Counted from the first letter of the whole stretch, positions 31,080-62,939 are shown. The stretch is 62,939 nt of DNA, filler included, from Stramenopiles sp. TOSAG23-6 (GCA_900128565.1; 9 parts of 9 records of this genome joined end to end with filler, not necessarily neighbours in it); one strand, 5' to 3'. A program made the numbers and translations. Notes: generated by a model from the sequence alone, not told the origin.

Positions 31080-32587
31080 TAAGTAAATCTTTCGGTTTAC
31101 AGAGACTTTTGAATATCCAAGATAAAAAGCAGATAACGGATGTTACTAACAATGTGGATACTAGAAAAAAATATTCTTTCTTTTTTGATTCTGATGGTGA
31201 AAGCTCAATTTTTAATACATCAAAAGAAATATCAAGAAAAAAAAATGATTCTCCAAAAAAAGGATGGTTAAATTTTTCTACTATTTTTGCTTCGTCTTCT
31301 ACAAAACATCATAAATCTTGTACAAGTAAAGTTAGATTACCAGTAAAAATGGAAATATGTTCAGGTGCTGGTGAATGGGCCGTTGCACAAGCTTTAGCTA
31401 GTCGTTCCTCCGATGGAGTATCATCTGTAGAAAATAATAATAATATACATGTTGCTAATTGGGTTACAGTAGAACTACGCCGTGATCGCTTATATCATAC
31501 AATGTTACGTGCACTATTTTCTGGTGCAGATAATATGTGTTTCATGTCTGGCGATGCATCAAAAATTCTTCCTTCAAGTATTGCAACTTCATCGATATCA
31601 AACATTTACGTGAATCATCCTGAGCCACCGGAGCGTACATCTGATGGTGCTTTTGATTCCCAAGGAAAGCATTTATTGACTGCATCATTTTTTAAGGATA
31701 TTGCAAGAGTTCTTACCCCTGGTGGTACTATTACTATTGTCACAGATAATTTAGGGTATGCCAAACTTTTAGCTGGTATTGTAGCTGGTGCGAAATATGA
31801 CGGAAATTATACTGACTGTGAAGCATTTGAAGAATTAAAAAATAATAATGACAGTATGAATGATGGCGAGATAGATAATAATTTACCACCGGTATTTAAT
31901 CGACCTGCTCCAGGAAGAATTCGTACATGGGAAACTACATCCCTTACACCTAATCCTAATCCTAATCCTAACCCTAACCCTAATGATTCTTTTCGTAGAC
32001 ATTCAAAAGAAAATACACAAAAAGAGAAACGCAAAAATGTAGATATTAAAAAGAGGTTTTTTGCGTCTGTTCCTGTTAGAAAAGTTGCAAGTGATGGCAG
32101 ACAAATTAAAATGAGCATTTATGGTGTTGATATTTGTGTTGGTATACCTGGCCGACGTGTTATCGGAGGGCATGTCACTCATGTACGTTTTCATCATGAA
32201 TTTCAAATTTGTTTTTTTTTCATACGAAAATGTGTACCTAACACATTATACATTTTTATTTTTTTCACAATACATGCATCATCATATTTTGATCGATTGT
32301 GGAGGAAAGGTAAAAATGTAGAACGATTTTCTTTAGTCCTACGTACAAAAGATATTTCTGGTATTTTTGAAAGTTCTACTTTTATTTCAAAAGATAATTT
32401 TAAATTAGTAGATTCATTTTCTTCTTCCTCTTCTTCGTCTGCTCCTATGTCACGTAAACGCATTATTAAAGCCGTTCGTGTTTCACCAGTGCGACCTGAC
32501 AAGCGAAGTACCACAGAAATTTTAAAACACCAGAAAGCAAAAAAACAAAGAACGAAATTGTCGAATGTTAAAAAAGTTATTTTTTAG
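31080..32587 (+). CDS. TrmB-like (tRNA m7G46) methyltransferase-domain protein, 5'-partial, intron 32183-32275
   Basis: MEICSGAGEW, VTVELR, IYVNHPEPP, HLLT..FF..IARVL.PGG.ITIVTDN..YA, SSYFDRLW. Confidence 0.75.
32183..32275 (+). other. Introner-family intron, GT-AT, 93 nt (stop-free, in frame)
   Basis: CAT|GTACGTTTTC…CATACGAAAATGTGTACCTAAC…CACAATACAT|GCA; no AG inside. Confidence 0.8.
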
Positions 32588-32633
32588 ATTTTTTAGATAA
32601 AGTATCATTTAAATGGACTTTTAAATGTTTTTT

Positions 32634-33940
32634 TTATTGTTTTGCTTTTTTACGTTGCTCAAAAAAAGGATCTGGAAATACTTCTGGAAAAAATTGACCC
32701 GCTTTTCCAAGCTTTCCTGCTAATGGAGGTTTTTGGAGTGAAAAAATATTTTAAGGAAAAAAAATGTCAGGTACAGAGTTAGGTACGAAAAGAAAATTTT
32801 TAAAATTTTTAAAATTGATGATTATGGTTGTTAACATACTTTGGATCGAGGCACTGAGTTCTACCGTCAATATAGTTGACACTGAAAGCTCGTCTAGGGC
32901 AAGCTGTAACATTACTCCCACTTTTATGCACCGTAAAATTGTGGACGAGGAAGGTATCACCAGGTTTGCCTGTATGAAAAAAAAAGTTGTATTTTTATCT
33001 TTTTGTTAGGTAAAAAGCCTTTGGATTAGGGTTAGGATTTATTTAAAAAAATATATTTTAGATGCAATTTTAGCAACGTACATTGAAGAGATACAGTATT
33101 CTCAGGTCTACATATCTTCTTTACTAGTTCTGAAGATAATGTATTTTAGAAAAATATTTCAAAAAAAAACGTTAGGTACAAAATTTAGTATGAAAAAAAA
33201 ATCGAAATTAAAAAAAAATAAAATCATACATGTATGTCCTCGAGCCGATAAAAGACCAAATTTATGAGAACCGCGAATTACTTTCATACAACCTGAATTT
33301 TCTGTGACGTCATCGAGGGCTGTCCAACAAAATATTTTTGGGTCTCGGTCCAAGGCCCACCAGTCACCCCCATCTTGATGATAAGGCATGTATTGTCAAA
33401 ACATGTTTGGAGGATTTGTAGAAAAAAAATATTAGGTACAAAATTGTGTATGAAATGTTTTTTTTTGAAATTGGTGATAAAAATATACAGTGGCATTCCA
33501 CCGCCACACTTTTTAAAATGTGCAGGCTTATTGAATAGCATTGCTCTATACACAGAAATTTTGGTATGTGGCCCATATGCGCGACTACATATATCTCTAA
33601 AAATAGATTTCTTCATAAAAGATGCAAAGAGGTCATCACATTCAAGGCCAGCTCCAGCTTCACCGATTTTGCGATACATTCGTGTGGCACCCTTCCAACC
33701 TACAGTCTGACCAGAAATTTCAACATTTTGCTTTTCATAATCGAGCTCTTCGCCATTTTTGTTGGTGGTAGGGTCTAACTGCATTAATAATTTGTCACCG
33801 TATTGTATTTTTCCCATCATGATATCATCGATACGTTTTATGAGAGCTTCAAGTTCAACTTTTGAAAGTACATTTTCGATTCGAAGGAAACCATCCTCGA
33901 GAAACTGCTCCCAATCTGCATCAGAAATACACGTAGACAT
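32634..33940 (-). CDS. PhyH-family dioxygenase, five exons
   Basis: Spliced product …GGGMPLPYHQDGG…WTALDD..ENSGCMKVIRGSH…LSARGHTLSS…CKPGDTFLVHNFTVHKSG…RRAFSVNY…. Confidence 0.88.
32731..32839 (-). other. Introner-family intron, probable GT-AA
   Basis: CCAAA|GTATGT…TTCGTACCTAAC…CACTCCAAAA|A CCT gives LDPKPPLAG; no AG inside. Confidence 0.6.
32970..33081 (-). other. Introner-family intron, canonical GT-AG variant containing CCTAACCCTAA
   Basis: CAAT|GTACGT…TTTTTACCTAAC…CATACAG|GC AAA gives LQCKPGD. Confidence 0.82.
33139..33229 (-). other. Introner-family intron, GT-AT
   Basis: ACAT|GTATGA…TTTTGTACCTAAC…AAAATACAT|TA TCT gives RGHTLSSE. Confidence 0.85.
33388..33488 (-). other. Introner-family intron, GT-AT
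   Basis: CCA CT|GTATAT…GACAATACAT|G CCT gives MPLPYHQD; no AG inside. Confidence 0.85.
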
Positions 33941-34467
33941 TCTTTTCTATGACAATATAATGATCACTGAGTTATGAATAAATAGCTTTTGTAGAAGAGG
34001 AAAAGAAAACAGAGAGGAAACGAGGCAAAGACTCAAAGTGGGCTTCCCTTGGAGAGAGGTATTATATTATTTTATTCGTATCTTCGTATATTTATTATAT
34101 TATATTGCGGCCATCGCGCGATGATTGATGTCAAAATTTCTCCGTTGATGTCCGTTCTTTCTATTTTTTCGCTTTCCGTTTCATCGGAGTTTTTTTTGAC
34201 GTACTAGTAGTAGAAACACGTAAGTATGTGTGGCTATTTTATTCTATAATATAGACAACAAATACAGACTGTAGCTAGTAGTGTTAATTGCTCTTTACTA
34301 CGTACTATACAACTACCTCCATACAGTACGTCGTAGTATCCTACAGCCAACTTTGAATCTCAATTCTAATGCAGTGCCACTTGCAGTAGATTGGCTAGGG
34401 TTAGGTTCAACAATTTCAATATTTTCATGGTACGAATACTTTGATTATTATTAGTAAATAGAAAAAA

Positions 34468-37592: not shown

Positions 37593-37802
37593 CTGGCGAA
37601 GACTATTCTTGTCAATATGTGTGATATGCATGATTCAGAAACAATCTTCACCACTCAGTTTATCTTTGTTAAATAAATTATTATACAGAAAATGTCTAAA
37701 AATGTTTATAATATATACTAAAAGTAAATTACAAATTCACTTAAGGGAAACAAACATTACTGTTTTTTCAAATAAATCACAAATTCACTTAGGGAAACAA
37801 AC

Positions 37803-38618
<816 letters not shown>

Positions 38619-38971
38619 TCAAAAAAAAATCGTTAGGTACGAAATTTCGTATGAAANNNNNNNNNNNNNNNNNNNNNNNNNNNNNNNNNNNNNNNNNNNN
38701 TTAATTAATTAANNNNNNNNNNNNNNNNNNNNNNNNNNNNNNNNNNNNNNNNNNNNAAAAAAACAATTTATCAGAACCCCAAAGTTTGAGCGACAGAGCA
38801 GAGCGAGTTCAGTTTGAACAAAATGGAAAAAATGGTGGTCATCCATCGCGTCCATCAAACCAAAGTCAAAAGTCAGAGTGAGTCAGAGACTCAGAGTATG
38901 AATTATTTAGTAAGTGTGCAATAATAGTAATTGTGTGCCTCCAACATTAAACGCTCGTGAAAGCTTAGAAT

Positions 38972-39873: not shown

Positions 39874-40341
39874 TTTTCAAAACAACGCAAACAGTTATCT
39901 TTATTAGTATTCATTTTCTTATTGATAAATTTATCTTTGCATCACTATCTATTTTCACCTGCATATTACTATCTAGTTTATTCTCGCCAAATAGAGCACT
40001 TAATGCTGTAATATCAGATTCTTCACACAAAATACTACAATGTGAGTCAAATGAACTCTCTTCAGTGTCCTTCTCGGCGGCGGGGTCAGTTGTTTGCGTT
40101 TCTTCTGAGATAATTTTATCAATCGCTTTACTATTATTATTATTATTATTATTATTATTTGAATGAAAAATTGACGAAGAATTATGTTTACTCACTTTAG
40201 TCGAGGTGCTCCTCTGAAGATCAACAGGATGACCAATTAACTTCAAATTTAAAATTGAATCTGTACCAAATTTCATACCTAACGAATTTGACATTGATTT
40301 TACAGGGGTCCATGTGCTACTATGTATTTTGTAAAAATATT

Positions 40342-41433
40342 TCAAAAAAAAATACTTATATTTTTAATTTTACATGTAGATTGCGATTCACATGGAGTAT
40401 TTATCATATCTTTATTTTCCAAACTATTACCAAGAAAATTTTCGATTGCTTCTGAAGTAGACATTGAGCTTCTAATTGTCGAATTTCTTGAGTTTGGCAT
40501 TGGATAACTAAAAAAATATTCATTCGTAAGAGACTCACGGGGCGAAATTCGCTTCAAAGGATTCAATTGTAAAATTTCTTGTAGGAGTTTAATTGCACTA
40601 GACGATGCATTAGGTGCTATAATGGATAAGTGAAGAGGATGCATTTCAGGGAAATTTAACTTTTTATAGTCGGGAAGATTTTCCACATCAGGCCAATCAT
40701 GATGAAGGTTAGGTGTACCAAGTACCTGCATGACACGAAATATTTGATCAATATCATTACTTCCCGGAAAGGCTGGGTTAAGACTTAGTAGTTCTGCAAA
40801 TATACACCCGACACTCCATGTATCAATACCAAATCCATAAGAACGAGAACCAAATAATAGTTCCGGTGCTCGATACCAACGAGAAGCCACTTGATGGGAG
40901 TATCCACCATTAGGCAAAGGCATGCCTTCTTTATGAATTCGTGCAAGACCAAAATCAGCTATTTTTAGTAAACCATTTCTTCCAAGAAGCATATTTGATG
41001 GTTTAATGTCTCTATGTATGATGTTATGATCGTGTAGATAGCTGACACCTTGAAGTAACATCTGGAACAGATGTTTAACTAACGGAACTGGCAAAAGTTC
41101 ACCACCGCAACCATCACCGCCACGTTTCCGATGGTAATCCAGAAGTCGTCTCAAGTCAGTTTCCATATATTCCATAACAATCACTAAGGTAGAACCATCT
41201 GCAAAACTATCTTGTAATTTTATCACATTGTGATGACCAGGTCGAGAAAGTTGTTTTAGTGCCTGGAGCTCACGTAAGATTGTGTTTGCTGCACTACGTT
41301 CAGCCCCAGGAGCATTACTTATACACACCCGCTTCATAGCGACAATATTACCAGTTGGGCGATGACGCCCACGATGAACACTTCCAAACGCACCCGCGCC
41401 TTTATGGCTAAGTATCTCATATCTTTCAGACAT
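40342..41433 (-). CDS. CDK20: Cyclin-dependent kinase, CDK20/CCRK-like (3' end uncertain)
   Basis: GAGAFG, HRDIKPSNML, DFGLAR, YSHQVASRWYRAPELLFGSR, FPGSNDIDQI. Confidence 0.8.
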   Translation of the reverse strand: MSERYEILSHKGAGAFGSVHRGRHRPTGNIVAMKRVCISNAPGAERSAANTILRELQALKQLSRPGHHNVIKLQDSFADGSTLVIVMEYMETDLRRLLDYHRKRGGDGCGGELLPVPLVKHLFQMLLQGVSYLHDHNIIHRDIKPSNMLLGRNGLLKIADFGLARIHKEGMPLPNGGYSHQVASRWYRAPELLFGSRSYGFGIDTWSVGCIFAELLSLNPAFPGSNDIDQIFRVMQVLGTPNLHHDWPDVENLPDYKKLNFPEMHPLHLSIIAPNASSSAIKLLQEILQLNPLKRISPRESLTNEYFFSYPMPNSRNSTIRSSMSTSEAIENFLGNSLENKDMINTPCESQSTCKIKNISIFF

Positions 41434-41596: not shown

Positions 41597-42184
41597 TTTT
41601 TTTCAATATTTTATTCTTCAAGCCGTTTAAGATTCCCCATTAATAAATAGGGCCAAGGTAGTATCCCGGCACATTGTAACATTAATGACACTGTAATAGT
41701 TCGATTTTCTTCATCAACACGTAAGTAAACTTCAGGGTGCTTCAGGATGCCCGAAAAAAAACGAAACAAGTGCATACAAAAAAGTGTAATAAAATTAAGA
41801 ATTGTCGGGGGTTTTTTTTTTCGTACGAAATTTTGTACCTAACAATTTTTTTTTGTATGAATTTTTAATCTTCAGCCAGACAAAAAAATGTAATAAAATT
41901 AGGAACTGTCTCTTCAGCCAGAGAACAATGTTACGTATTTGTAAAAAAAAACTGAAGAAACGTACGATCATGAGGCTATTGATGTGTGGAAGAACGTGAA
42001 GAAATCCAAATTGAAAGAAAAACTGCACAAGCAACAGCAGCTTGATACTGTCATACTGTATAGTAGTCGGTTAGAAGAAGTTTATAATGTAGCTATGAAA
42101 AAAATGAACCACAGCTTACTATACATTATATTCTACACGTGTAATAAAGTATGCATAATAATCATTTCGGAATATTGATTGTGT

Positions 42185-42714: not shown

Positions 42715-44475
42715 TTGATTGGCCCGGTCAGCCATGCGAAAAAACATTCAGCAAAGCAAACGTCGGAACTTGAAGTAAAGTGTGAGAGTATGTTACCAAG
42801 AAAGGGGGAAACTATTACATTACTTGTCGATTTAGACTCAGATGTCCCTGGCACAGAATTAAAGAAGGGTACAAAAGCAACTGTACGTTTGTTACCGTGT
42901 GAAAACTCTGGTTTATATGAAATCGTAGTAGGTAATAAGTTGTATGATGTTGATTTGTCTGAAATACAAACGTCAAATCCGAGTTGTGAGTTTACTACTC
43001 CCATAAAAATGCCTTCTGTAATATCTCAAAATCGCGACCAGGCTAAATATTTATGGGAAAGAGGTACTCAAAAATGGCGCTTGGCTCTGGATAACTCTTG
43101 CCAACCTAGTAATGGTGTAAGTGTAGCTAAAGAACTTATTTTACAATCCATTTATGATTTCCTTGACTCCAATCGCTTTGATAGTCAAAAATACATTGAT
43201 AATTCTGCAAGTTGCAGTTCAAAGATTTCTCTAGCTGAGAGATGCCTTTTCACTGGTATTTGTCTGGTTGATCTTGGCTCAAAGCATGTCAAAATGGGTT
43301 GTTCCTTGATGCGTCAAAGTTTAGCTCTGAATAGTCTAGATATTCGAGCATGGCGTGAGTTATGCTGTGTTTTAGAAGAAGAAGGAGATATGAAAAGTGC
43401 AAGAAATCTAGTGTCTGAAGCTGTCGCGAAAGGCTTCGGTCCATGGTATCATCCCAGTGGATATCAACGGCCAGGTTATTTGGTGTCAAATCTGCGTGCC
43501 TTTCCATTTTGGCTTGCAGACAGTAAAAAAACAATCTTGGGCACGAAATTTTGTATGAAAAAAAATAGTAAAATTGAAATTCATAATGATCAAACAGAAT
43601 TCCCGTGGATAAAGAAATTGGCAGAAAATACGCATATCATAAAGTCTGAATTAGAATCTGTTGTAGGTAGTAATATTGGTTGTACAAAAAAATCTTCTAA
43701 AAAGTGGAATGCAGTAGGAGGTAATCATAGACTATGTACATTTTATTTTTTTTTCAATTTTGATTTTTTTTTTTCGTACGAAATTTTGTACCTAACGAAT
43801 TTCATTTTTTTTTTGAAATATTTTCCCAAAATATATCTGGTCGCGATGATTCTTCCGTATTAACTCAAGGAAACTGGGATGAAATAATAGTATTTAATGG
43901 GGATCCAAATAATACGACAATAATGCCAAAAACTGCAGCTTTGTTGGAGAAAATATGCCCTGATGCTGTTGATCTTGCATTGAGAGGTGGTGGTGAAATA
44001 ATTTTCTCAAGGTTAGCTCCTAAAACACGAATATCGCCTCACTGTGCGACTACTAATTTTAGATTGACTGCACATTTAGGCATATCAATTCCTTCAGAAT
44101 GTGTCAAAGGACCACCTGGAAAGCTGAGTCCAAGCAATGTTTGCTCCATTCGTGTTGGTACACAATGGGAAACCTGGGAGGAAGGGCGAGTTTTAGTTTT
44201 TGATGATTCTTTTGAACACGAGGTAATCAACGATACGGATCATACACGAATAATCTTACTTTTGAGATTTTGGCATCCGGATATTTCAATTCACTCTACA
44301 ATAACAAAAACAAATAGATATAAAGAATACCAAGTAAAAAAAAACAAATAGATATAAAGAATACCAAATAGAAAATAATTTTAATAATGCAACAAAACAA
44401 GCTGCTATCAAAGGAGCTTGTGCCTATCGTGAGGCTGCATCGCAGTTTAAATTAATGCCTCCAGTGTATTCCTGA
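42715..44475 (+). CDS. Aspartyl/asparaginyl beta-hydroxylase family protein with TPR-like N-terminal region (introns 43523-43597, 43736-43836; 3' end uncertain)
   Basis: FSRLAPKTRISPHC..TNFRLTAHLG, WEEGRVLVFDDSFEHEV, LLLRFWHPD. Confidence 0.85.
43523..43597 (+). mobile_element. Antisense-oriented copy of the introner element, probably spliced as a 75-nt GT-AG intron
   Basis: Reverse complement reads TCATTATGAATTTCAATTTT…TTTCATACAAAATTTCGTGCCCAAG. Removal gives FPFWLADKFPWIKKL. Confidence 0.65.
43736..43836 (+). other. Introner-family intron, GT-AT
   Basis: CTAT|GTACAT…TTTCGTACGAAATTTTGTACCTAAC…AAAATATAT|CT GGT gives NHRLSGRDD; no AG inside. Confidence 0.85.
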
Positions 44476-46365: not shown

Positions 46366-46467
46366 AGNNNNNNNNNNNNNNNNNNNNNNNNNNNNNNNNN
46401 NNNNNNNNNNNTTAATTAATTAANNNNNNNNNNNNNNNNNNNNNNNNNNNNNNNNNNNNNNNNNNNN

Positions 46468-47305
46468 GACACTTCTTTGAACAATATGACACAGCCTTAC
46501 ACTGACTACAAAGAAGCATTTTTTTATTTTTACCCTCTAAACCACAAGTAAAACATTTTGATTTACTCTGTTTGATTATGAGTTCTCTTAAAAAATCATC
46601 ATCTGTGTCTTTCATCTGCTTTTTTGCTTTTCCGTTCCATTTTGCTGCGGTTTTCAAACATTTAGTGACACCAATACCATCACAATAACTCATAGCAAGA
46701 GCGACTTGTGCGTTCTTACATCCTTGATTTGCAGCCTTTTTCAACCATTCAACTGCTGTTTTATAACATTGAGTGACACCATCACCTTTATGATAACATA
46801 TACCAAGATGATACTGTGCTTTTACATGGCCTTGATTTGCAGACTTTTTCCACCATTTAACTGCAGTTTTATCACATTGAGTGACACCATCACCTTTAAA
46901 ATAACAATTACCAAGAATATACTTTGCTTCTACATGGTCTTGATTTGCAGACTTTTTCAACCAATCAACTCCTGTTTTATAACATTGAGTGACACCATCA
47001 CCTCTCAAATAGCACGTAGCAAGAGCACACTGTGCATCTGCATGGCCTTGATTTGCAGACTTTTTATACCATTTAACTGCTGTTTTATAACATTGAGTGA
47101 CACCATTACCTTTCAAATAGCACATAGCAAGACTGTATTGTGCTTCTGCATAGCCTTGTTCCCCAGACTTTTTCAACCATGTAACTGCTGTTTTATAACA
47201 TTGAGTGCCACCATCACCGTTAGAATAACATATACCAAGATTGAATTGTGCTTCTACATCGCCTAGTTCTGCACACATTTTCCAAAATTTAACTACTGCA
47301 TCCAT
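46468..47305 (-). CDS. Sel1-repeat plus MYND zinc-finger protein, 3'-partial
   Basis: Six Sel1 repeats followed by CFTCG…LLCSQCKAVSYCSKKC. Confidence 0.9.
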
Positions 47306-47756
47306 GTTGAATTGAACTCTAGCCTTGCCAATGATTATGTTTGAATTGTGGTATTATTATTGGTGCCCTTATTGTCTTCTAGCAGACAACTCTCCGTGTG
47401 AACGCGAGCGCATGTGTGTGCACTGGCTCGACAGATTGCTACAGGTCTGAGAAATTCGGATAAAGTTTAAACCTCCGACTCCAACAAATCATGTTTGTTC
47501 CATCAAAAGAGAAAAAAAACTTCTAAAAAAAAATCACTACGTAAAGGTCAAACAAACCTGCTCAGCTGACATAAAATTTTTTTTTTCTAAAATCTCGAGA
47601 AAATGAATCTAATTCTTCTTCTTCCCGATTATTCGACGACACTCAAGATCTTCAGACTTTTAGATTAGATCAATATGATTTACACTGTAGTTTAAATATT
47701 TTTTTAAGAAAGCAGAAGCAGAGTATGTATTAGAATATTACTCTAGAGTTGCTACA

Positions 47757-50158
47757 ATGGCATACGCTAATCCCCTTAAAAACTTCCATTTGAAGAATAA
47801 CCCAGAGGTCAATGAACCTGGAGTACTGACTGAAGCGACTGGAGACTATAGAGAACAGTCGCACTTGGAAATTTCTAGCACACTCCTGTATAGTAAACAA
47901 TCTTTTTTACCTGCACTTCCTGTACCTCCACTTCGAAAATCCGTAGAACGGTATCTCCTTTCTCTTAAACCTCTATTGACTATACAAGAGTTCAACGCTT
48001 CAAAAAAAGCTGTGAATAGTTTTATTCAACCAGGAGGTATGGGTGAAGTACTTCAGGCTCGTTTAATAAAGCGTGCCACAGAGCATAACGCGGATGGTAG
48101 TAATTGGCTTCAGTTATGGTGGAACCAGTTTTCTTATTTAGATTATCGAGCGCCAATTGCTATTAATGTTAGTTATTATTTTCACTTTAAAGACCTCCCT
48201 ACCAAAATTGATCCAATCTGTCGTGCCTCAAACTTAGCAGCAGCAATGCTTTGCTTTCGTCACCTTGTTATCTCCGGAAAATTATCCCCTGAAGTATCTG
48301 GGAAAAAGAAAGTGTCATTATGTTCAACTGCGTATAAATACATGTTTAACGCCTGTCGTATCCCGGGAACTAGTGGACGCGATACTGTTCGTTTGTATGA
48401 TCACAATCTAGTTGATAATAATACAATTATTGTAGCTTTGCGTGGACAATTCTATGAAGTCAAAGTTCCAGAAAGTAGTAGATTACATATACATCCAAAA
48501 GATATCGAGAAATTATTTCGTGAAGTCATCCAATTATCAGAAAAAATGACTTCTAATAGTGTTAATACTGTAGGTATCCTTACTACATGTAATAGAGATG
48601 TTTGGGCCCATGAAAGAACAAAATTGATTGTAAATGGTAATATAGAATTTCTCCATCGAATTCAACGAGCCGCATTTATTGTGTGTCTAGATGATTCATC
48701 TCCAAGTACAAGAGATGAAGTTGGTAGTTGCCTCTGGAAGGAAAACGGAGAGAAGTTAGGGTTAGGAAATCGTTGGTACGATAAATCACTTCAACTTGTT
48801 GTATTCAAAAATGGTAAAGCAGGTTTAATTGGAGAGCATTCCATGTTTGATGGTCAACCATGTCTTAGAATGACTGAATGGATTCTTCATGCGGAATATT
48901 TGTACTACAGTAATAATTTAGTAAATTCAACTTCAACGTTACATTTGAATAGTACTACAAATTGTGATTCTAACCCTAATCCTAACCCTAAACAAGGTCA
49001 AGTGTCATTACTGAAACCAATATTGAATGAAGATCTGAAATGGAAAATTCGGTCGGCAAGAAATGAATTCAAATGCCTATCAAACAAAAATTTGTTACAC
49101 TCACTCGCTTGGTTTGGTTTTGGTTCTGATTTTATCAAAAAAACAATGTACGTTTTCATCAACCCTAACCCTAATTTCATTTTTTTTTTCTAGATCAGAA
49201 TTGAGATGCTGAGACGTAATCCAAAGCCTTGCAAATTCGACATATTTTCTACAATACAGAAAGGTCAGTCCTGATGCTCTGATTCAAATGGCAATCCAAT
49301 TAGCATATAAGACAATGTTTGGCTGCTGTAGAGCAACATATGAGCCAGTATCAATGCGAACATTTAGGCATGTATGTTTTCATCAAAAAATTTTATGTAT
49401 ATTTTTTCATTGAATTTTTTTTTGTACATAACTGTTTATTTTGACCAATTTTGATTTTTGAAATATTTCCGCAAATACATGGAAGGACTGACACCGTTCG
49501 AAGTGTTTCTGTAGAATCTGTACAATGGGTAAATCTAATGACACGTGACTCGACCTCTACTTTACATGAGCAATGTAGTACGGACTCTAACCCTAACCCT
49601 AGTAATCAGAGAAATGAACAACTCCGGCTTCTTCGGAAAGCTTGTCATACACATTCTCAACAAATTCGGTTAGTCGCTAGTGGGTATGGTTTTGAGAGGC
49701 ATTTATTAGGTTTGCGGTTACTTTTACGGAAAGACACAAAAGAAACTGCAGACATTTTTGAAGATCCATCCTATTGGAAATCATGTCATGTACGTTACCC
49801 TAACCCTAATCATGAAATTTCAATTTTAAATTTTTTTTTTTTTTTATAATATCATTTTCGAATTTGGTACCAAACATTTTTTTTGAACAATTTCGAATTT
49901 CTGAATTTTTTCACAATACATTGGACACTATCGACAAGTAGTATGGCTACAAATGCATTAGATGGCTGGGGATACGGACCTGTCGTGACTGAAGGTTTAG
50001 GCATTTCTTACGTAGTTGGACCTGATACTGTAAAGTTTTTTGTGACGTCATCACAAAAATTTTCAAAGCAGTTTTGTCAAGAGTTAGAAAAGGCTTTGTT
50101 AAACATTTGGGCTCTAGTAGGGAAAGGTCCCAAACACAGGAATGTTGCTAAATTATAA
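47757..50158 (+). CDS. CRAT: Carnitine O-acetyl/acyltransferase, probably peroxisomal (C-terminal AKL), four exons
   Basis: LPALPVPPL, NRWYDK, GEHSMFDG, SPDALIQMAIQLAY, FRH-GRTDTVRS, H-WTLSTS, YGPVV..GLGI.Y; ends in AKL (PTS1-like). Confidence 0.9.
49148..49259 (+). other. Intron with family-type ends, GT-AG, containing CCCTAACCCTAA
   Basis: ACAAT|GTACGTTTT…ACAATACAG|A AAG gives FIKKTIKVSPDA. Confidence 0.85.
49372..49480 (+). other. Introner-family intron, GT-AT
   Basis: CAT|GTATGTTTT…GCAAATACAT|GGA; junction fixed by the conserved FRHGRT; no AG inside and the next AG is out of frame. Confidence 0.9.
49790..49921 (+). other. Introner-family intron, GT-AT, containing CCCTAACCCTAA
   Basis: CAT|GTACGT…CACAATACAT|TGG; junction fixed by the conserved HWxLSTS; in-frame stop inside; no AG. 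Confidence 0.9.
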
Positions 50159-50376
50159 TAATTTACTATTTTTAAAGAGAACATTTTAGTGAGATACCAA
50201 AGTCATTAAGGATATATATAACTCTCTGAAAAAAAAAAAAAAAAAAAAAAAAAAGAATTTAAAAAAATTTTTTTAAATTCTTTTTTTTTTTTTTTTTTTT
50301 TTTTTTCAGAGAGTTATATATATCCTTAATGACTTTGGTATCTCACTAAAATGTTCTCTTTAAAAATAGTAAATTA

Positions 50377-52778
50377 TTATAATTTAGCAACATTCCTGTG
50401 TTTGGGACCTTTCCCTACTAGAGCCCAAATGTTTAACAAAGCCTTTTCTAACTCTTGACAAAACTGCTTTGAAAATTTTTGTGATGACGTCACAAAAAAC
50501 TTTACAGTATCAGGTCCAACTACGTAAGAAATGCCTAAACCTTCAGTCACGACAGGTCCGTATCCCCAGCCATCTAATGCATTTGTAGCCATACTACTTG
50601 TCGATAGTGTCCAATGTATTGTGAAAAAATTCAGAAATTCGAAATTGTTCAAAAAAAATGTTTGGTACCAAATTCGAAAATGATATTATAAAAAAAAAAA
50701 AAAATTTAAAATTGAAATTTCATGATTAGGGTTAGGGTAACGTACATGACATGATTTCCAATAGGATGGATCTTCAAAAATGTCTGCAGTTTCTTTTGTG
50801 TCTTTCCGTAAAAGTAACCGCAAACCTAATAAATGCCTCTCAAAACCATACCCACTAGCGACTAACCGAATTTGTTGAGAATGTGTATGACAAGCTTTCC
50901 GAAGAAGCCGGAGTTGTTCATTTCTCTGATTACTAGGGTTAGGGTTAGAGTCCGTACTACATTGCTCATGTAAAGTAGAGGTCGAGTCACGTGTCATTAG
51001 ATTTACCCATTGTACAGATTCTACAGAAACACTTCGAACGGTGTCAGTCCTTCCATGTATTTGCGGAAATATTTCAAAAATCAAAATTGGTCAAAATAAA
51101 CAGTTATGTACAAAAAAAAATTCAATGAAAAAATATACATAAAATTTTTTGATGAAAACATACATGCCTAAATGTTCGCATTGATACTGGCTCATATGTT
51201 GCTCTACAGCAGCCAAACATTGTCTTATATGCTAATTGGATTGCCATTTGAATCAGAGCATCAGGACTGACCTTTCTGTATTGTAGAAAATATGTCGAAT
51301 TTGCAAGGCTTTGGATTACGTCTCAGCATCTCAATTCTGATCTAGAAAAAAAAAATGAAATTAGGGTTAGGGTTGATGAAAACGTACATTGTTTTTTTGA
51401 TAAAATCAGAACCAAAACCAAACCAAGCGAGTGAGTGTAACAAATTTTTGTTTGATAGGCATTTGAATTCATTTCTTGCCGACCGAATTTTCCATTTCAG
51501 ATCTTCATTCAATATTGGTTTCAGTAATGACACTTGACCTTGTTTAGGGTTAGGATTAGGGTTAGAATCACAATTTGTAGTACTATTCAAATGTAACGTT
51601 GAAGTTGAATTTACTAAATTATTACTGTAGTACAAATATTCCGCATGAAGAATCCATTCAGTCATTCTAAGACATGGTTGACCATCAAACATGGAATGCT
51701 CTCCAATTAAACCTGCTTTACCATTTTTGAATACAACAAGTTGAAGTGATTTATCGTACCAACGATTTCCTAACCCTAACTTCTCTCCGTTTTCCTTCCA
51801 GAGGCAACTACCAACTTCATCTCTTGTACTTGGAGATGAATCATCTAGACACACAATAAATGCGGCTCGTTGAATTCGATGGAGAAATTCTATATTACCA
51901 TTTACAATCAATTTTGTTCTTTCATGGGCCCAAACATCTCTATTACATGTAGTAAGGATACCTACAGTATTAACACTATTAGAAGTCATTTTTTCTGATA
52001 ATTGGATGACTTCACGAAATAATTTCTCGATATCTTTTGGATGTATATGTAATCTACTACTTTCTGGAACTTTGACTTCATAGAATTGTCCACGCAAAGC
52101 TACAATAATTGTATTATTATCAACTAGATTGTGATCATACAAACGAACAGTATCGCGTCCACTAGTTCCCGGGATACGACAGGCGTTAAACATGTATTTA
52201 TACGCAGTTGAACATAATGACACTTTCTTTTTCCCAGATACTTCAGGGGATAATTTTCCGGAGATAACAAGGTGACGAAAGCAAAGCATTGCTGCTGCTA
52301 AGTTTGAGGCACGACAGATTGGATCAATTTTGGTAGGGAGGTCTTTAAAGTGAAAATAATAACTAACATTAATAGCAATTGGCGCTCGATAATCTAAATA
52401 AGAAAACTGGTTCCACCATAACTGAAGCCAATTACTACCATCCGCGTTATGCTCTGTGGCACGCTTTATTAAACGAGCCTGAAGTACTTCACCCATACCT
52501 CCTGGTTGAATAAAACTATTCACAGCTTTTTTTGAAGCGTTGAACTCTTGTATAGTCAATAGAGGTTTAAGAGAAAGGAGATACCGTTCTACGGATTTTC
52601 GAAGTGGAGGTACAGGAAGTGCAGGTAAAAAAGATTGTTTACTATACAGGAGTGTGCTAGAAATTTCCAAGTGCGACTGTTCTCTATAGTCTCCAGTCGC
52701 TTCAGTCAGTACTCCAGGTTCATTGACCTCTGGGTTATTCTTCAAATGGAAGTTTTTAAGGGGATTAGCGTATGCCAT
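50377..52778 (-). CDS. CRAT: Mirror copy of the carnitine acyltransferase (fold-back arm)
   Basis: Reverse complement of 47757-50158. Confidence 0.6.
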
Positions 52779-53229
52779 TGTAGCAACTCTAGAGTAATAT
52801 TCTAATACATACTCTGCTTCTGCTTTCTTAAAAAAATATTTAAACTACAGTGTAAATCATATTGATCTAATCTAAAAGTCTGAAGATCTTGAGTGTCGTC
52901 GAATAATCGGGAAGAAGAAGAATTAGATTCATTTTCTCGAGATTTTAGAAAAAAAAAATTTTATGTCAGCTGAGCAGGTTTGTTTGACCTTTACGTAGTG
53001 ATTTTTTTTTAGAAGTTTTTTTTCTCTTTTGATGGAACAAACATGATTTGTTGGAGTCGGAGGTTTAAACTTTATCCGAATTTCTCAGACCTGTAGCAAT
53101 CTGTCGAGCCAGTGCACACACATGCGCTCGCGTTCACACGGAGAGTTGTCTGCTAGAAGACAATAAGGGCACCAATAATAATACCACAATTCAAACATAA
53201 TCATTGGCAAGGCTAGAGTTCAATTCAAC

Positions 53230-54067
53230 ATGGATGCAGTAGTTAAATTTTGGAAAATGTGTGCAGAACTAGGCGATGTAGAAGCACAATTCAATCTTGG
53301 TATATGTTATTCTAACGGTGATGGTGGCACTCAATGTTATAAAACAGCAGTTACATGGTTGAAAAAGTCTGGGGAACAAGGCTATGCAGAAGCACAATAC
53401 AGTCTTGCTATGTGCTATTTGAAAGGTAATGGTGTCACTCAATGTTATAAAACAGCAGTTAAATGGTATAAAAAGTCTGCAAATCAAGGCCATGCAGATG
53501 CACAGTGTGCTCTTGCTACGTGCTATTTGAGAGGTGATGGTGTCACTCAATGTTATAAAACAGGAGTTGATTGGTTGAAAAAGTCTGCAAATCAAGACCA
53601 TGTAGAAGCAAAGTATATTCTTGGTAATTGTTATTTTAAAGGTGATGGTGTCACTCAATGTGATAAAACTGCAGTTAAATGGTGGAAAAAGTCTGCAAAT
53701 CAAGGCCATGTAAAAGCACAGTATCATCTTGGTATATGTTATCATAAAGGTGATGGTGTCACTCAATGTTATAAAACAGCAGTTGAATGGTTGAAAAAGG
53801 CTGCAAATCAAGGATGTAAGAACGCACAAGTCGCTCTTGCTATGAGTTATTGTGATGGTATTGGTGTCACTAAATGTTTGAAAACCGCAGCAAAATGGAA
53901 CGGAAAAGCAAAAAAGCAGATGAAAGACACAGATGATGATTTTTTAAGAGAACTCATAATCAAACAGAGTAAATCAAAATGTTTTACTTGTGGTTTAGAG
54001 GGTAAAAATAAAAAAATGCTTCTTTGTAGTCAGTGTAAGGCTGTGTCATATTGTTCAAAGAAGTGTC
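53230..54067 (+). CDS. Mirror copy of the Sel1-MYND gene (fold-back arm)
   Basis: Reverse complement of 46468-47305. Confidence 0.6.
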
Positions 54068-54224
54068 NNNNNNNNNNNNNNNNNNNNNNNNNNNNNNNNN
54101 NNNNNNNNNNNTTAATTAATTAANNNNNNNNNNNNNNNNNNNNNNNNNNNNNNNNNNNNNNNNNNNNTTCGTACGAAATTTTGTACCTAACGATTTTTTT
54201 TTGAAATATTTTTTCACAATACAT

Positions 54225-54732
54225 ACACCTCATTCTTGTACCATCCAACCGTGGAAACGTGATGCATTTGTTGTGAATACACTATGGGGTATACCAAAAA
54301 AACAGATTAATCTTGGTATTGGATTTTTCTCGTATAACCACACAGGAGTCTCTGGTGAGTTACCGTGGGATTTTCATGGTGAACCGACGTGGCATGTATG
54401 TTTTAATTTTTTTTTTTTTACGGTAAAAAAAAAATCGAATTTATTTTTTTCGTACGAAATTTCGTACCTAACAAATTTTTTTTTATAGAAAAATTTTGAA
54501 ATATTTTTTCATAATACATGGTATTTCGAAACTTTGTCCAAATATTGACAAAAATAAATGTGTTTGTAATGGAGTTTGGTTTACATCTAAATCTATGTGT
54601 ACAGAGATTGGTCGGTTTGTAAAAGAAGAAGGATTTCGTGGTGTGTTTCCTTGGGCAGCAAATTATGATAGTCCAGATTCAAAAGACTCATTAGCTTATT
54701 ATGTTGGTATGGGACTCGGTCTTGTTAATTAG
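54225..54732 (+). CDS. GH18 (chitinase-like) C-terminal exons, intron 54396-54519
   Basis: WGIPKKQINLGIGFF and FVKEEGFRGVFPWAANYD match the GH18 beta7/beta8 pattern. Confidence 0.65.
54396..54519 (+). other. Introner-family intron, GT-AT
   Basis: CAT|GTATGTTTT…TTTCGTACGAAATTTCGTACCTAAC…ATAATACAT|GGT; the internal AG is out of frame. Confidence 0.82.
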
Positions 54733-54912: not shown

Positions 54913-56921
54913 ATGTTTTTATGCTCACGGCGTTTTCTATTTGGTATTCACAACTTGTCAAAAGCAAATGGATATCGTTTGTTTTCAACGACTCCTATTG
55001 CATCACCTACTATTGTAAAGACAAAAGGTCGTGTGTTGCTTCTTGAACTTGATTATCGGGCGACAAATGTTGCGCCGGGAACACTTTTACGTCTCCCAAA
55101 TGGTGGAAACGCGTGTACTCTTTTTGAAATCAATGGAATGCACATTGCGCTTGTAATGGATAGTACCATACAATTACCAGAGATTGGACAAAATGTATCC
55201 ATATCAGAAAAAGTGCTTGGAGTCGATGCCAAGCGTGTCTTGAGCACAGACACACCAGTGAATATACAGAATTATTTTCAATCTATTCCTTCCAAAAAGG
55301 ATATAAAGGACAACACAGATACTAGTAGTACTACTTGTACTATTACTACTACTGATATGTACAACTTTCCTGTATTTCAAGAGCATCCAGAAGGCTCAAA
55401 TCGACAAGTTATTTCAAAACAATTTCATACTGGAGTCATTGCTGTCGATGCTCTCACACCCATTGGTCGTGGACAAAGTATGTTGATTTTAGGTCAAGAT
55501 GGTGATAGGGGTCAATTTGATATTGCTTTAGATGCAATCAGTGTTCAAAAAGAGAATGATGTACAATGTATTTGGGCTTTACTTGGTGAGAACACTTCTG
55601 ATGAAGTCACCATTGAAAATAACTCTGATTATAATGATACCAATTCTTTAGAGCATTTACAACATCGTTTATCAAAACGTGATTGTGTTTCTACAAATAC
55701 ATTTATATCAACTACAAACACATTGCCTAGTATAGTTGATTGTGATATCAATGATAGTCATCAAGATGATATTATACACGACAAACACGAAATACGACGT
55801 ATTGAAAAAGATGCTGATCGATTTGTTGGAGCTGCTGCAGCGTGTGCCGTATGTGAAAGTTTGAGAGATAATGGTAAATCTAGTGTACTTGTACTTGATG
55901 AACTCACGCCTCTACGTCGTCTTTGGTCAGCTGCTGGCGATATGGTGAATGAACATTTAAAAGATGTAGGAAAAAGACGAGCGAGTGGTGCAGAAGAATT
56001 AGCAAATCTTAGAGATTATTATTCCCGATTGATACAACGCGCTGCCTGTCTACGTCCGGATCTTGGAGGGGGGAGTATGACAATACTTGCACTGTGTACA
56101 GAAACAACAAAAGATGTTGTTGAGAAGAAACAAAGAATACATAAAAATAGCTCTATACTTGACAATGAACAAAATCAACAAAATCAACAAAATCAACAAA
56201 ATCAACAAAAACAACAAAATCAACAAAATGAGTTGATTAATATAACAAACAAAGTGAATGATTTGCCACTTGAAATGAATGATTTACTAGAGATGGGTGT
56301 TTCATCAAAAGATATACAACGTATTGAACTTCTTTGGTGTCGTGGAGCAAAAATTAATAGAAATGTTTTACAAATTTTATCCATCCCTTACAATGAAACT
56401 GTATACCCTAACCCTAACCCTAATTTGACAGAGACATTTGAAACACCTACAAAATATTCAAAATATTCAAAACATTCAAAAATATCCATGCAACATTGTG
56501 AAGAATTAAAGTCACTAGCAGATGGTCATATAAATTTAACTACAAAAATATGGGACACTGGATATCGACCAGCATTTGATGTCTCACATTCATTATCACG
56601 ATTAGGAATTACTTTTGGTACTTTTTTTTTTTCAATTTCGAATTTATTTTTTTTTGGTACGAAATTTTGTACCTAACAAATTTTTAATTTTTTTTTGAAA
56701 TATTTTTAACACGATGGGAGGTCAAGAATTAGCTGATGTTCGTCCACCTGCTTTACGTAGTGTGGCACAACCTATTCGAATGCAAATGACCGCAGCTCTA
56801 GAAGCTACAAACTCAGCGACATCTGCGGCATCGATTCTTTCACGCGAAAACGTCACTCCACAAGAACATACTGCTGCAATAGCAAATGTATTTTTTCATT
56901 ACAATTACAATTACAATTACA

Positions 56922-56955
<34 letters not shown>

Positions 56956-57362
56956 GTACATTACATTTCATACCTAACAACAAAATATCCAATCATTTTT
57001 TGACATACGGTTTCACAATATATGGTATGAGATTGCATGCATGGCGAGCAGTTATGCATCAGTATCCTACTCAGACTCTTCCTCTGGCAAGTCAAGTTGC
57101 ATTACTTAAAGCTGTTGGTGGTGGATATTTTGATTTGAAAGATTTCGTGTCACATTCTTCTTTACGAGGTGGGAAAGAGTCACCATTAGTTAAACATTTA
57201 GAAGAAGCCGCAAATGATGTGTTGGAAGAGATTGAGGAGTATGGTATATTACCTGAAAATAGTTTGCTTGAAAAGAGACTTGATGTTAGTACTCGATTAT
57301 TTTTAGCACTTTATGATGCTAATGCTTTTGATGTAGATGAATCATTTGAAAAAGAAGAATAA
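54913..57362 (+). CDS. Highly divergent F1-ATP synthase alpha-like protein (introns ~56618-56717, 56888-57023)
   Basis: HTGVIAVDALTPIGRGQ, ESLRDNGK..LVLDEL, YYSRLIQRAA, GGGSMTIL, SLADGHI, GYRPAFDV..SLSRLG; Walker A degenerate. Confidence 0.8.
56888..57023 (+). other. Introner-family intron, GT-AT
   Basis: AAT|GTATTT…TTTCATACCTAAC…CACAATATAT|GGT; joins two ORFs in frame; no AG inside. Confidence 0.75.
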
Positions 57363-58520: not shown

Positions 58521-58648
58521 TTCCTGATTATTTTAAAATATAAAAGAATGTATATGAAAGTTTATTAAAATGTTTCAAATGCATAAATGCGCTGTTTAGT
58601 TTTGTCAAACGTTGAAAATATAATTCGTGTTATATCTATAGTTTAGTA

Positions 58649-59569: not shown

Positions 59570-59814
59570 TTTTGTTTAGCTTTATATATATATACAGTAT
59601 CACAGTAATACTATTTGCTAGTAGGATCTTTTAAAAAAAATAACGTATCTTACATACAAAAAAAAAAATAGAAACGGGAGACCGGGTAACTTTGAATCAT
59701 AAAAATTAAAAAAAAAACATTTTCTTTTTATACTTTGATAATTCAATATTCCAAACACGAGAGAAAATTTCATACAATAGTTCAATTCGAATTTATTTTG
59801 TTCATTAAAATCTC

Positions 59815-61444: not shown

Positions 61445-61483
<39 letters not shown>

Positions 61484-61490
61484 GAAAAAA

Positions 61491-61525
<35 letters not shown>

Positions 61526-61549
61526 TGAAATTATATTAAATGATGGTTA

Positions 61550-61584
<35 letters not shown>

Positions 61585-61757
61585 AAATTCATAATGAAAC
61601 TGTACATATTGTAAAGACGAAAGATGTTTTGATATAATTCGTGCTTGAAGCGTCTCTCCAGCTAATATTCCTTTCTTGACCACAACTTGAACTAAGTCAT
61701 CAATAATAAAAGATGTTTTATTATTTCTATAATTATATTTATGTTTTTGTGTTTTTT
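59815..61757 (-). CDS. WW-domain protein, 5'-partial, intron 61351-61605
   Basis: W..CWD…YWYSPSTNQSVW and WSTFWD…YYYVNNKTGVSTWKKP; upstream exon joins as LQY-DICTINY. Confidence 0.78.
61351..61605 (-). other. Long poly-T/poly-A intron with family-type ends, GT-AT, bypassing a CAG 5 nt upstream
   Basis: TAT|GTACAGTTTCATTATGAATTT…CACAGTACAT|GAT; use of the CAG leads to a stop. Confidence 0.65.
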
Positions 61758-61858
61758 NNNNNNNNNNNNNNNNNNNNNNNNNNNNNNNNNNNNNNNNNNN
61801 NTTAATTAATTAANNNNNNNNNNNNNNNNNNNNNNNNNNNNNNNNNNNNNNNNNNNNT

Positions 61859-62939
61859 AGTGATTTAGATCATAGTGATGATATTTTTTCAAATACAAAT
61901 AGTGATTTAGATAATAATGATGATATTATTTCAAATACAAATAGTGATTTAGATCATAATGATGATATTATTTCAAATAAGAGTTGTTATGAAGAGGAAA
62001 TTGCAGATCAAACTTGTCACAAAAAACATAAAAAACAATCTGAAGTCAATGAAATTGTTCCTGAACAAATGTCAACGTCACCAAAACCTCCCCACACACC
62101 ATGTATGTTTTATTTTTTTTCAAATTCTAATTTTTTGTTTCGTACGAAATTTGATACCTAACAAAAAACTTTTTTTTTTTTGAAATTCTAATTTTTTTTC
62201 GTACGAAATTTTGTACCTAACAAAAAACTTTTTTTTTTTTTAAATATTTTTCCGAAATACATGCCCTGCTTATGCTGAAATGCAAATACCTGCTCTCCAG
62301 TATGCAATGGCAAATTATGGAATGAGAAAAGCTTCAAAGAAAGTAATGGTACAAAAACTAACTGAGTTTTGGCACTTTTTGAGAAAGGATAAACTCATTC
62401 AAAAGACTAAAGAAAAAAAAAAAAGAAAGAAAAAGAAGAAGACTAATTTGATTTGTCGACAGAATTGTAATGTAGTTGCTCTTCCTGTACCTGATGAAAA
62501 TGGTCATATAGATGCGGTACTTGCACCTGTACGTTTTCAGTATGAATTTCAAATTTTTTTTTCGTACGAAATTTCGTACCTAACAAATTTCGAATTTAAT
62601 TTTTTTTACGATACATGTTATCCAAGGCTGTAAAGCTGGAAAAACAACGTGTACGAATCAAAGTGATCAAAAATGTAGTGAATGCAATAATAACAGCACA
62701 CGAGAGAGCAATGGAAAAATCTGTAAATGTAAAGACGGGTTTTACGGAGACTGCACCCAAACATGCACCAACAGGGCAAATTCAACTTGTACTAAATGTA
62801 GTTCAATTAATGTATGTACTGCTTTAACTTGCACTAATGGTTTTCTTAATGCAGATAATGATGCCAGTAATGGTTGTGAAAAAGCATGCACCAACAGGGC
62901 AAATTCAACGTGTACTTCATGCACTTCAAATGACACATG
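61859..62939 (+). CDS. SLX4-type SAP-motif protein fragment continuing into Cys-rich repeats (introns 62103-62262, 62529-62616); possibly two genes joined
   Basis: TPCPAYAEMQIPALQYAMANYGMRKASKKVMVQKLTEFW resembles the SLX4 SAP motif; then CKCKDGFYG and CTNRANSTC repeats. Confidence 0.55.
62103..62262 (+). other. Introner-family intron, GT-AT, with duplicated branch module
   Basis: CCAT|GTATGTTT…CGAAATACAT|GC CCT; two TTTCGTACGAAATTT..TACCTAAC units; no AG inside. Confidence 0.82.
62529..62616 (+). other. Introner-family intron, GT-AT
   Basis: CCT|GTACGTTTT…TTTCGTACGAAATTTCGTACCTAAC…ACGATACAT|GTT; opens the Cys-rich frame to the window end. Confidence 0.75.

Follow-up and report, generated by a model that had tools for sequence, protein, structure and literature searches.

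Introner elements of Micromonas and Aureococcus, the subject of work by Huff et al. in 2016, reportedly obtain one splice site from a target-site duplication (TSD), and the tunicate Fritillaria is said to carry non-canonical introns derived from miniature inverted-repeat transposable elements (MITEs), with most of its introns breaking the GT-AG rule and the donor GT lost. AG-AN intron patterns of Fritillaria are mentioned by Farhat et al. 2021 (PMC7789003), who describe introner elements of Amoebophrya that feature 8-20-base inverted repeats in hairpins and no fixed terminal dinucleotides. A Chrysochromulina introner family carries the donor and takes the acceptor from the TSD, and fungal introner-like elements have canonical GT-AG ends and neither TSD nor terminal inverted repeat (TIR) (Gozashti et al. 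2022, PMC9860276). Here, we describe an intron family in a stretch of 62,939 nucleotides from Stramenopiles sp. TOSAG23-6 (GCA_900128565.1), hereafter the window. The evidence base consists of this 63-kb window and a single 3.2-kb metagenome contig, L001. It is well supported that the introns form one introner family with copies in unrelated genes, and most of them appear to end in AT rather than in AG.

In mechanism, the family comes closest to the introners that take their acceptor from a TSD: a short non-autonomous repeat would have turned into an intron on insertion, one splice site lies in the element while the other would come from the duplicated target, removal would be scarless and many unrelated genes are occupied. 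In contrast to those introners, which have a fixed 3-9-base duplication and a canonical AG, it features a repeat of 1-2 bases or of variable length, mostly AT acceptors and 4-base inverted termini (PMC9860276). With the Amoebophrya elements, the nearest non-canonical precedent, it shares repeated non-canonical introns, short direct repeats over the borders, which make the border ambiguous, a proposed transposon-like spread and the lack of an evident transposase (PMC7789003); here, however, GT is invariant, the branch motif is yeast-like, a conserved hairpin is lacking and the rule is broken at the last base only. The family is thus distinct from both groups in its intact donor, yeast-like branch site, minimal termini and mostly AT acceptor. 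Fungal introner-like elements are likewise a sense-oriented, gene-restricted intron family degenerating into ordinary-looking introns, but the sequence here is unrelated and the ends are mostly non-AG. As in Fritillaria, the GT-AG rule appears to be broken in most introns, in a possible connection with transposon insertion, although here the donor is retained and the change is confined to the acceptor. A literature search retrieved no paper linking MAST-3-type stramenopiles to introners or non-AG introns (supplementary files lay outside this search), and a full-text search for the branch motif string returned only primers.

Aligned copies share a layout composed of GTAYGTTTT, an optional CATCATGAATTTCAA, a T run, TTTCRTACGAAATTTYGTACCTAAC, TTTTGAAATATTTTTC and AATAC followed by two bases. 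GTAYCTAAC occurs 36 times in the window versus 0.49 expected (a total that includes eight mirror copies from a palindromic contig), and TTCRTACGAAA, with at most one mismatch, gives 58 strand-matches versus 4.3 expected. An nhmmer profile built from six introns yielded 47 window matches at E<0.01, including the six seeds and 10 mirror copies, and one further match in L001; the window matches are spread over no fewer than 12 different genes. Copies in unrelated genes, such as those coding for Trm8-like, PhyH-like, K+ channel, glucose-6-phosphate isomerase, carnitine acyltransferase and ATP-synthase-alpha-like proteins, match with E values of 1e-8 to 1e-21. An earlier, sequence-only reading of this DNA had described a shared layout in unrelated genes, and these counts bear it out; the range that it gave, 32183-62616, was too narrow, as copies are also found at 1-54, 7769-7823, 12022, 15084-15428 and 22651-27066 (Table 1).

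Best-partner identity among the introns is 73-92% over 79-148 aligned bases. "Dimer" introns, which contain two branch-site modules and a tail-like spacer, have the same architecture at three loci (26196-26351, 62103-62262 and 25138-25266), and the dimers i12 and i33 are 89% identical over 148 bases, pointing to a variant that was copied and not to one shaped by convergent constraint. The interior of the element holds five of 16 contig ends (binomial P=0.004, assuming that the element makes up 7% of the sequence), as expected of a high-copy repeat, and also one scaffold gap. A scan of sequence collections with a 24-base core identified one metagenome contig, L001, which carries a true copy, and no match in prokaryote genomes. 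A 17-base version of the core matched 42 genome loci and six viral loci; these were treated as chance matches, since only one of them, L042, matched the element profile, and marginally so (E=0.00057).

The same resemblance could be explained by old, immobile introns in which the shared sequence represents unusually long splice signals required by a divergent spliceosome. Every window intron, AG ones included, resembles the family to some degree, leaving no clearly unrelated class for contrast; donor and branch region are the most conserved blocks, and AG is avoided in the tail. We nevertheless regard this explanation as improbable, as the copies share idiosyncratic features beyond the splice signals (CATCATGAATTTCAA, TTTTGAAATATTTTTC and TAGA in the tail), come in dimer variants of one architecture and are interrupted by assembly breaks. 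Moreover, no conserved RNA fold was found across the introns (consensus of -1.9 kcal/mol with six pairs, all near the branch region), and homologues of about 50% identity, such as P0245 (longest contig 18 kb), are single and continuous at the protein level.

Twenty-three complete introns, 22 in the window and one in L001, were placed by coordinates. The counts exclude intron i11 (25138-25266), two copies with tentative borders at 22651-22964 and every partial or mirror copy, and each palindromic contig was counted from one arm only. A 52-base intron candidate in the kinase gene (40322-40373) was dropped because it leads to a stop codon. All 23 introns start with GTA, followed by T in 13, C in nine and G in one. 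The last two bases are AT in 16 introns, AG in four, AA in two and GG in one, the last of which has an alternative in-frame AG three bases on; the penultimate base is A in 22 of the 23. Six further copies represented by the 3' end only all terminate in AT.

Alignment to intron-free homologues fixed 10 junctions exactly (four AT, two AA and four AG). For instance, the spliced model of the carnitine acyltransferase is gap-free relative to six homologues (P0122, P0124, P0137, P0139, P0140 and P0147), and the junctions FRH^GRTDTVRS and SCH^WTLSTS (carets mark splice junctions) both require the ..ATACAT^ end. All four junctions of the PhyH-like gene are gap-free versus six homologues, as is the K+ channel junction in seven of seven, and the glucose-6-phosphate isomerase exons flanking i22 abut at residues 427 and 428 of 7e77_A and 434 and 435 of 3ujh_A. 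A search of solved structures gave no match for the Trm8-like junction (i15) and matches too weak for use for the chitinase-like junction (i30). Since six of the 10 homology-fixed junctions are non-AG, the non-AG intron ends are, on the evidence of these protein alignments, real, and removal from GT to two bases past ATAC, presumably by the spliceosome, would be scarless and need no AG. The claim of a non-AG acceptor therefore stands for these six, whereas four family members end in canonical AG; scarless removal agrees with all ten junctions, in line with the scarless intron gain proposed in the sequence-only reading, and the two GT..AA introns have their 5' G at 34781 (+) and 32839 (-), in agreement with its coordinates.

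The two public gene models compared use only GT-AG alternatives at these loci. P0121 (carnitine acyltransferase, 47691-50149, + strand) loses the conserved GRTDTVRS, part of a GRT(D/E)T block, P0242 (PhyH-like, 32635-33940, - strand) loses the HQD iron-binding motif (catalytic HxD), and one of the two reads into an intron. P0241, a 94%-identical relative from an independent contig, reads through i16, which there ends in ..ATATAT versus ..ATACAT in the window; the C at position -3 is thus polymorphic, the terminal AT is unchanged, and i16 is retained in a related strain.

With equal flanks, the GT..AT and AT..AC registers yield the same messenger, as occurs in the AT/AT and AA/AA introns. The true borders might consequently lie two bases upstream (^ATGTAYGT..ATAC^), giving AT-AC introns that obey first-A/last-C compatibility or belong to a U12-like system. 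The first-A/last-C compatibility rule of introns would suit most copies, as the shifted intron starts with A and ends with C. We consider this very improbable. Only the GT register of i16 (CT^GT..AT^G) keeps the Leu found in six of six homologues, which the shifted register changes to Met; no register of i19 ends in G or C; and the shifted register of i23, as read from the sequence, produces a stop codon. GT is present in 23 of 23 introns versus 16 of 23 for the upstream AT, and in the family copies ending in ..ATACAG^ the G occupies exactly the position of T in the other copies. A true register that starts at GT is therefore favoured by the sequences.

The extended branch region is TTTCRTACGAAATTTYGTACCTAAC and the branch motif is TACCTAAC. 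In 18 introns, CTAAC is found at a distance of 33-52 bases from the 3' end; two more values, 91 and 118, come from telomere-like motifs. The 3' ends of U12-type introns tolerate AC, AG, AT and AA, and the family shares with them a strictly conserved donor and branch site and a loosely specified terminal dinucleotide. A U12 assignment was rejected, as the donor is GTAYGTTTT and not RTATCCTT and the branch site is not TCCTTAAC at 10-20 bases from the 3' end. U2-type AT-AC introns were rejected on the behaviour of i16, i19 and i23 in the shifted register, and non-conventional introns of the Euglenid/Amoebophrya type on the GT in 23 of 23 and the lack of an end-joining stem. A conserved RNA structure that would connect the two intron ends, or the donor with the branch site, was also rejected on the fold energy and on the nature of the flank correlation, which is one of identity and not of complementarity. 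An Rfam scan of the window returned no matches, and hence no small nuclear RNA gene to compare with the signals.

No AG occurs between branch motif and 3' end in 13 of the 16 non-AG introns, and the other three each have a tail AG that goes unused, at a distance of 30-32 bases from the 3' end. AG thus seems to be still avoided in the tail and used when at the end, with A-T and A-A accepted two bases after ATAC. It is possible, though we put it somewhat below an even chance, that the major spliceosome of this lineage routinely uses A-T (and A-A) acceptors, that a single introner supplied most introns and that the 3' splice site is set by its position after the conserved ATAC rather than by AG.

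The dinucleotides at the exon end and at the intron end are AT/AT in 13 introns, AA/AA in two (i19 and i20, both homology-verified), AT/AG in three, CT/AT in two, and TC/AT, GG/AG and TG/GG in one each. Within-locus matches were compared with random pairing, a test described by Gozashti et al. 2022 (PMC9860276). The last dinucleotide matches in 15 of 23 introns versus 11.3 under random pairing (P=0.009). Position -1 matches in 19 of 23 (13.2 under random pairing, P=0.0006) and, in the homology-verified subset, in seven of 10 (3.6, P=0.012). Position -2 matches in 18 of 23 versus 17.3, which is not significant, and position -3 in 13 of 23 versus 9.8, which is borderline (P=0.056). Because bases match by identity (AA/AA, G/G), an RNA helix does not explain the correlation. 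The spliced junction is AT in 16 of 23 introns (background 9.5%, P=6e-12) and CAT^G in seven of 16 (background 3.6%, P=7e-7), a bias that accounts for the His, Asn, Tyr and Met junction codons to which the sequence-only reading had drawn attention. Its statement that the flanking dinucleotide is usually the same holds for 15 of 23 introns, not always, and the correlation of exon and intron ends that it proposed as a check is present for the dinucleotide and at -1 and gives no signal at -2. Of the 2-3-bp duplication that it put forward, the locus-specific match at -1 survives, while a duplication of fixed length and the 3-bp CAT version are not established.

On balance, we think it somewhat probable that the introns derive from one 88-160-base introner-type element, the copies of which have decayed to various degrees, and that the last 1-2 bases come from an insertion-site duplication. 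Each copy carries its own donor (GTAYGT then TTT), the extended branch region and a T-rich tail that is poor in AG and terminates in AATAC; the RNA would be cut before GT and two bases past ATAC, restoring the messenger without a scar. The last two bases comprise A and a variable base, mostly T and sometimes A or G, which repeats the last base of the upstream exon and may represent the second copy of a 1-2-base duplication generated by insertion at an AT site, preferably C-AT-G. The acceptor would then be supplied by the target and would usually be AT, not AG. A DNA-transposon origin with an acceptor from the target duplication is plausible; the element would have spread at the DNA level, and the flank repeat would be the TSD. 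The flank pattern fits a 1-2-base target duplication without proving one, and the 35% mismatch rate, equivalent by our own estimate to 8-10% per-site decay over four bases, fits an eroded 2-base duplication. Site preference or microhomology-guided insertion is also compatible with the flank data.

Several observations weigh against a transposon with target duplication. Flanks are mismatched in eight of the 23 introns, position -2 carries no locus-specific signal, as the base there is nearly always A, and the significance of the P values depends on four non-T matches (two A/A and two G/G) atop a T/T majority. The direct repeat, read by eye, varies from 0 to 6 bases in length, which looks more like microhomology or site preference than like a fixed transposase duplication. 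The terminal inverted repeat GTAT/ATAC spans only four bases, with a 5' arm that coincides with the donor consensus; it is imperfect in nine of 23 copies, which start with GTAC, and reaches seven bases only if the flanking CAT/ATG is counted, so that TIRs of at least 6-10 bases, the MITE criterion, are not present. No autonomous element was seen, and no transposase domain was detected among the 22 window open reading frames (ORFs) scanned. Nearly all copies are sense-oriented inside genes; one degenerate copy (43516-43586) is clearly antisense, and one core fragment is intergenic, between divergent genes (41811-41854). The introns are T-rich, much of their resemblance is of low complexity, and only 22.5% of 231 intron pairs exceed the 95th percentile of a shuffled control (median pairwise identity of 0.60 versus 0.56 in the control). 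Finally, we infer splicing from protein homology. The description of the elements as introner- or MITE-like thus holds as regards a single sequence family, whereas MITE nature is not established; the inverted repeats exist, but only in the short and often imperfect form given above.

Many of these points would suit a mobile intron family that does not duplicate its target. Here, the element itself would end in ..ATACAT and would spread via RNA, by reverse splicing or by microhomology-guided insertion of cDNA, into CAT^G-like sites, and the shared AT would reflect a preference for proto-splice sites, comparable to the AG^G..AG of other eukaryotes. Besides the variable repeat length and the predominant sense orientation, three AT/AG and two CT/AT introns, in which exon AT and intron end vary independently, speak for this alternative, and family-wide matches cannot separate a TSD from site preference (Gozashti et al. 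2022, PMC9860276). We hold it to be unlikely, if far from negligible, since, at the level of single loci, the final base of the intron follows that of the exon, both AA ends adjoin AA exon ends at homology-verified junctions, and an antisense copy exists.

The window includes eight identical linkers (44 N, TTAATTAATTAA, 44 N), the spacing of which falls steadily from 7760 to 7690 bases. It is therefore a chain of contigs of about 7.7 kb and not one stretch of chromosome, and genes on opposite sides of a linker are not true neighbours. Two whole contigs, 23283-30924 (centre around 27100) and 46468-54067 (centre around 50270), are perfect palindromes in which all ORFs and elements are mirrored; they resemble hairpin chimeras from whole-genome amplification or an assembly artefact. 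Short, linker-joined contigs and perfect palindromes might raise the suspicion that the family itself is an amplification or assembly artefact, i.e., chimeric or collapsed repeats in a single-cell-type assembly. This is scarcely credible, given that the copies differ from one another and are located at frame-preserving positions in conserved genes, that the independent contig L001 carries a copy and that the independent contig behind P0241 carries i16 with small differences.

If the major spliceosome of this lineage does routinely use A-T and A-A acceptors, these introns would form a new class of U2-type GT-AT introns, and the published GT-AG-only gene sets of these protists would contain systematic errors, among them low gene counts and some apparent pseudogenes. 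A paper on MAST-3 assemblies notes that gene counts are low and that dynein "pseudogenes" occur, to which non-AG introns might contribute. Inventories of gene function in these protists, where derived from GT-AG-only predictions, may be biased, as both public models compared (P0121 and P0242) are wrong at non-AG introns. Introner surveys that start from annotated introns would miss the GT-AT family, which defeats standard gene prediction. If the acceptor indeed comes from the duplicated target, the family represents a natural experiment in which an invader forced or exploited a spliceosome needing no terminal G, with a bearing on 3' splice site choice and on introner colonisation in the absence of AG-compatible sites.

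Table 1. Copies of the intron family and other mapped features of the window. Carets mark exon-intron boundaries.
Feature	Position	Strand	Ends	Basis or remark
Copy, 3' part	1..54	+	..AAAATACAT	profile match; window begins inside copy
Copy, 3' part	7769..7823	+	ATACAT	contig start inside conserved core
Copy, 5' half, after LLESM codons of TypA/BipA-like GTPase gene	11957..12022	-	AAT^GTATGT	3' half replaced by unrelated sequence
Intron i04, prolyl-hydroxylase/GlcNAc-transferase fusion gene	15084..15200	+	ACAT^GTACGT..ATACAT^	45-N gap inside; reading frame only
Copy, 5' part	15323..15428	+	CCAT^GTACAT	cut by contig end
Copy, gene without assigned product	22866..22964	-		E=6e-12; boundaries tentative
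Intron i06	23042..23168	-	ATC^GTATGT..ATACAT^	tentative; just 14 bases of upstream exon before contig end
Intron i09, AT-rich gene	24402..24523	+	ACAT^GTATGT..AATTTAT^	reading frames agree
Intron i10	24660..24778	+	TTAT^GTAGGT..TTACAT^	reading frames agree
i11, dimer variant, two branch-site modules	25138..25266	+		downstream frame inconsistent; outside statistics
Copy without recognisable ends, in overlap of two convergent genes	25527..25613	-		profile match
Intron i12, dimer variant	26196..26351	-	AAAT^GTATGT..ATACAT^	counted among the 23
Copy, 3' part	26991..27066	-	CACAATTTAT	centre of palindromic contig
Mirror duplicates of copies at 24399-27066	27141..29808			second palindrome arm; uncounted
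Copy, 3' part	31025..31079	+	ATACAT	contig start inside core
Intron i15, Trm8-like methyltransferase gene, 93 bases	32183..32275	+	TCAT^GTACGT..ATACAT^	in frame without stop codons; reading frame only
Intron i19, PhyH-like gene, GT..AA	32731..32839	-	CCAAA^GTATGT..CTCCAAAA^	LDPK^PPLAGKLG gap-free versus homologues
Intron i18, PhyH-like gene, canonical AG	32970..33081	-	CAAT^GTACGT..CATACAG^	homology
Intron i17, PhyH-like gene	33139..33229	-	ATACAT^GTATGA..ATACAT^	RGHTLS conserved
Intron i16, PhyH-like gene, flanks CT/AT	33388..33488	-	CACT^GTATAT..ATACAT^	Leu in 6/6 homologues
Intron i20, cyclic-nucleotide-gated K+ channel gene, AA/AA	34781..34883	+	GCAA^GTATGT..ATACAA^	gap-free junction, 7/7 homologues
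Intron i23, glucose-6-phosphate isomerase gene, AG family copy	37962..38056	-	G^GTACCT..AATACAG^	homology
Intron i22, glucose-6-phosphate isomerase gene; 5' half family-like, 3' end canonical	38307..38414	-	TCAT^GTATGT..CTTGTAG^	exons abut at 7e77_A 427^428
Copy, 3' part	38601..38656	-	CACAATAT^GTT	contig ends inside core; boundary inferred
Core fragment between two divergent genes, possibly 5' untranslated region intron	41811..41854	+		profile match
Degenerate copy antisense to host ORF	43516..43586	-		profile match
Intron i25	43736..43836	+	CTAT^GTACAT..ATATAT^	TAT on both sides; counted among the 23
Intron i26, carnitine acyltransferase gene, AG; carries (CCCTAA)2	49148..49259	+	CAAT^GTACGT..AATACAG^	homology
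Intron i27, carnitine acyltransferase gene	49372..49480	+	GCAT^GTATGT..ATACAT^	FRH^GRTDTVRS
Intron i28, carnitine acyltransferase gene	49790..49921	+	TCAT^GTACGT..ATACAT^	SCH^WTLSTS
Copy, 3' part	54168..54224	+	ATACAT	contig start inside core
Intron i30, weakly chitinase-like gene	54396..54519	+	GCAT^GTATGT..ATACAT^G	reading frame only
Intron i31, ATP-synthase-alpha-like gene	56618..56717	+	TTTG^GTACTT..ACGATGG^	in-frame AG 3 bases on is alternative end
Intron i32	56888..57023	+	AAAT^GTATTT..ATATAT^	reading frames agree
Intron i33, dimer variant	62103..62262	+	CCAT^GTATGT..ATACAT^G	counted among the 23
Intron i34, flanks CT/AT	62529..62616	+	ACCT^GTACGT..ATACAT^	counted among the 23
Linkers	7669-7768, 15429-15528, 23183-23282, 30925-31024, 38657-38756, 46368-46467, 54068-54167, 61758-61857
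Telomere-like CCTAACCCTA, example sites	14256, 24063, 26541-26598, 31967, 34590, 48981, 49164, 49592, 49799, 54730, 56407			also in L001, ~2270-2330

Two loci that carry family copies have further peculiarities. The TypA/BipA-like GTPase ORF (11914-13308, - strand) stops behind domain 2, where it meets the 5' half of an intron copy (12022), and is followed by unrelated sequence and the next gene; it may represent either a truncated gene or a chimeric join. The contig at 23283-27100 has a G+C content of only 22-24% versus about 35% elsewhere, and its long ORFs are still split by family introns; the one ORF tested from this AT-rich contig had no Pfam match.

A protein-domain scan of the ORFs revealed that the window genes are eukaryotic. 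They include genes encoding a TPR/EF-hand protein, PhyH dioxygenases, the TypA-like GTPase, a prolyl-hydroxylase/GlcNAc-transferase fusion, a DEAD helicase, a U-box/Sel1 protein, a Trm8-like methyltransferase, a cyclic-nucleotide-gated K+ channel, NDUFA12, a kinase, ankyrin repeats, a carnitine acyltransferase and an ATP-synthase-alpha-like protein. The closest named match of the carnitine acyltransferase ORF is EukProt GSMAST32.ASY1.ANO1.554.1 (98% identity), followed by brown-algal, oomycete and diatom proteins (36-44%), which suggests a stramenopile near the one implied by the EukProt name. The ATP-synthase-alpha-like ORF had no close relative in the homologue search (best identity 26%). 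At 13431-15428 (+ strand), a single ORF combines 2OG-Fe(II) prolyl-hydroxylase and GlcNAc-transferase domains (PF13640 and PF11397) and is presumably the fused form of the two Skp1-modifying enzymes, a form known from oomycetes. An ORF with collagen-like G-x-x repeats (..GDRGLQGLKGEKGERGE..) adjoins a contig end at 15476-16363 (- strand).

The telomere-like motif CCTAACCCTA occurs 49 times versus 0.02 expected, approximately once per gene, and is located in exons, in introns and just past stop codons. In the carnitine acyltransferase, exonic copies of the motif code for NPNP stretches at places where all homologues have gaps, and the public model P0121 excises one of these stretches as an "intron". 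A regulatory motif and breaks healed by telomerase are both possible origins of these repeats.

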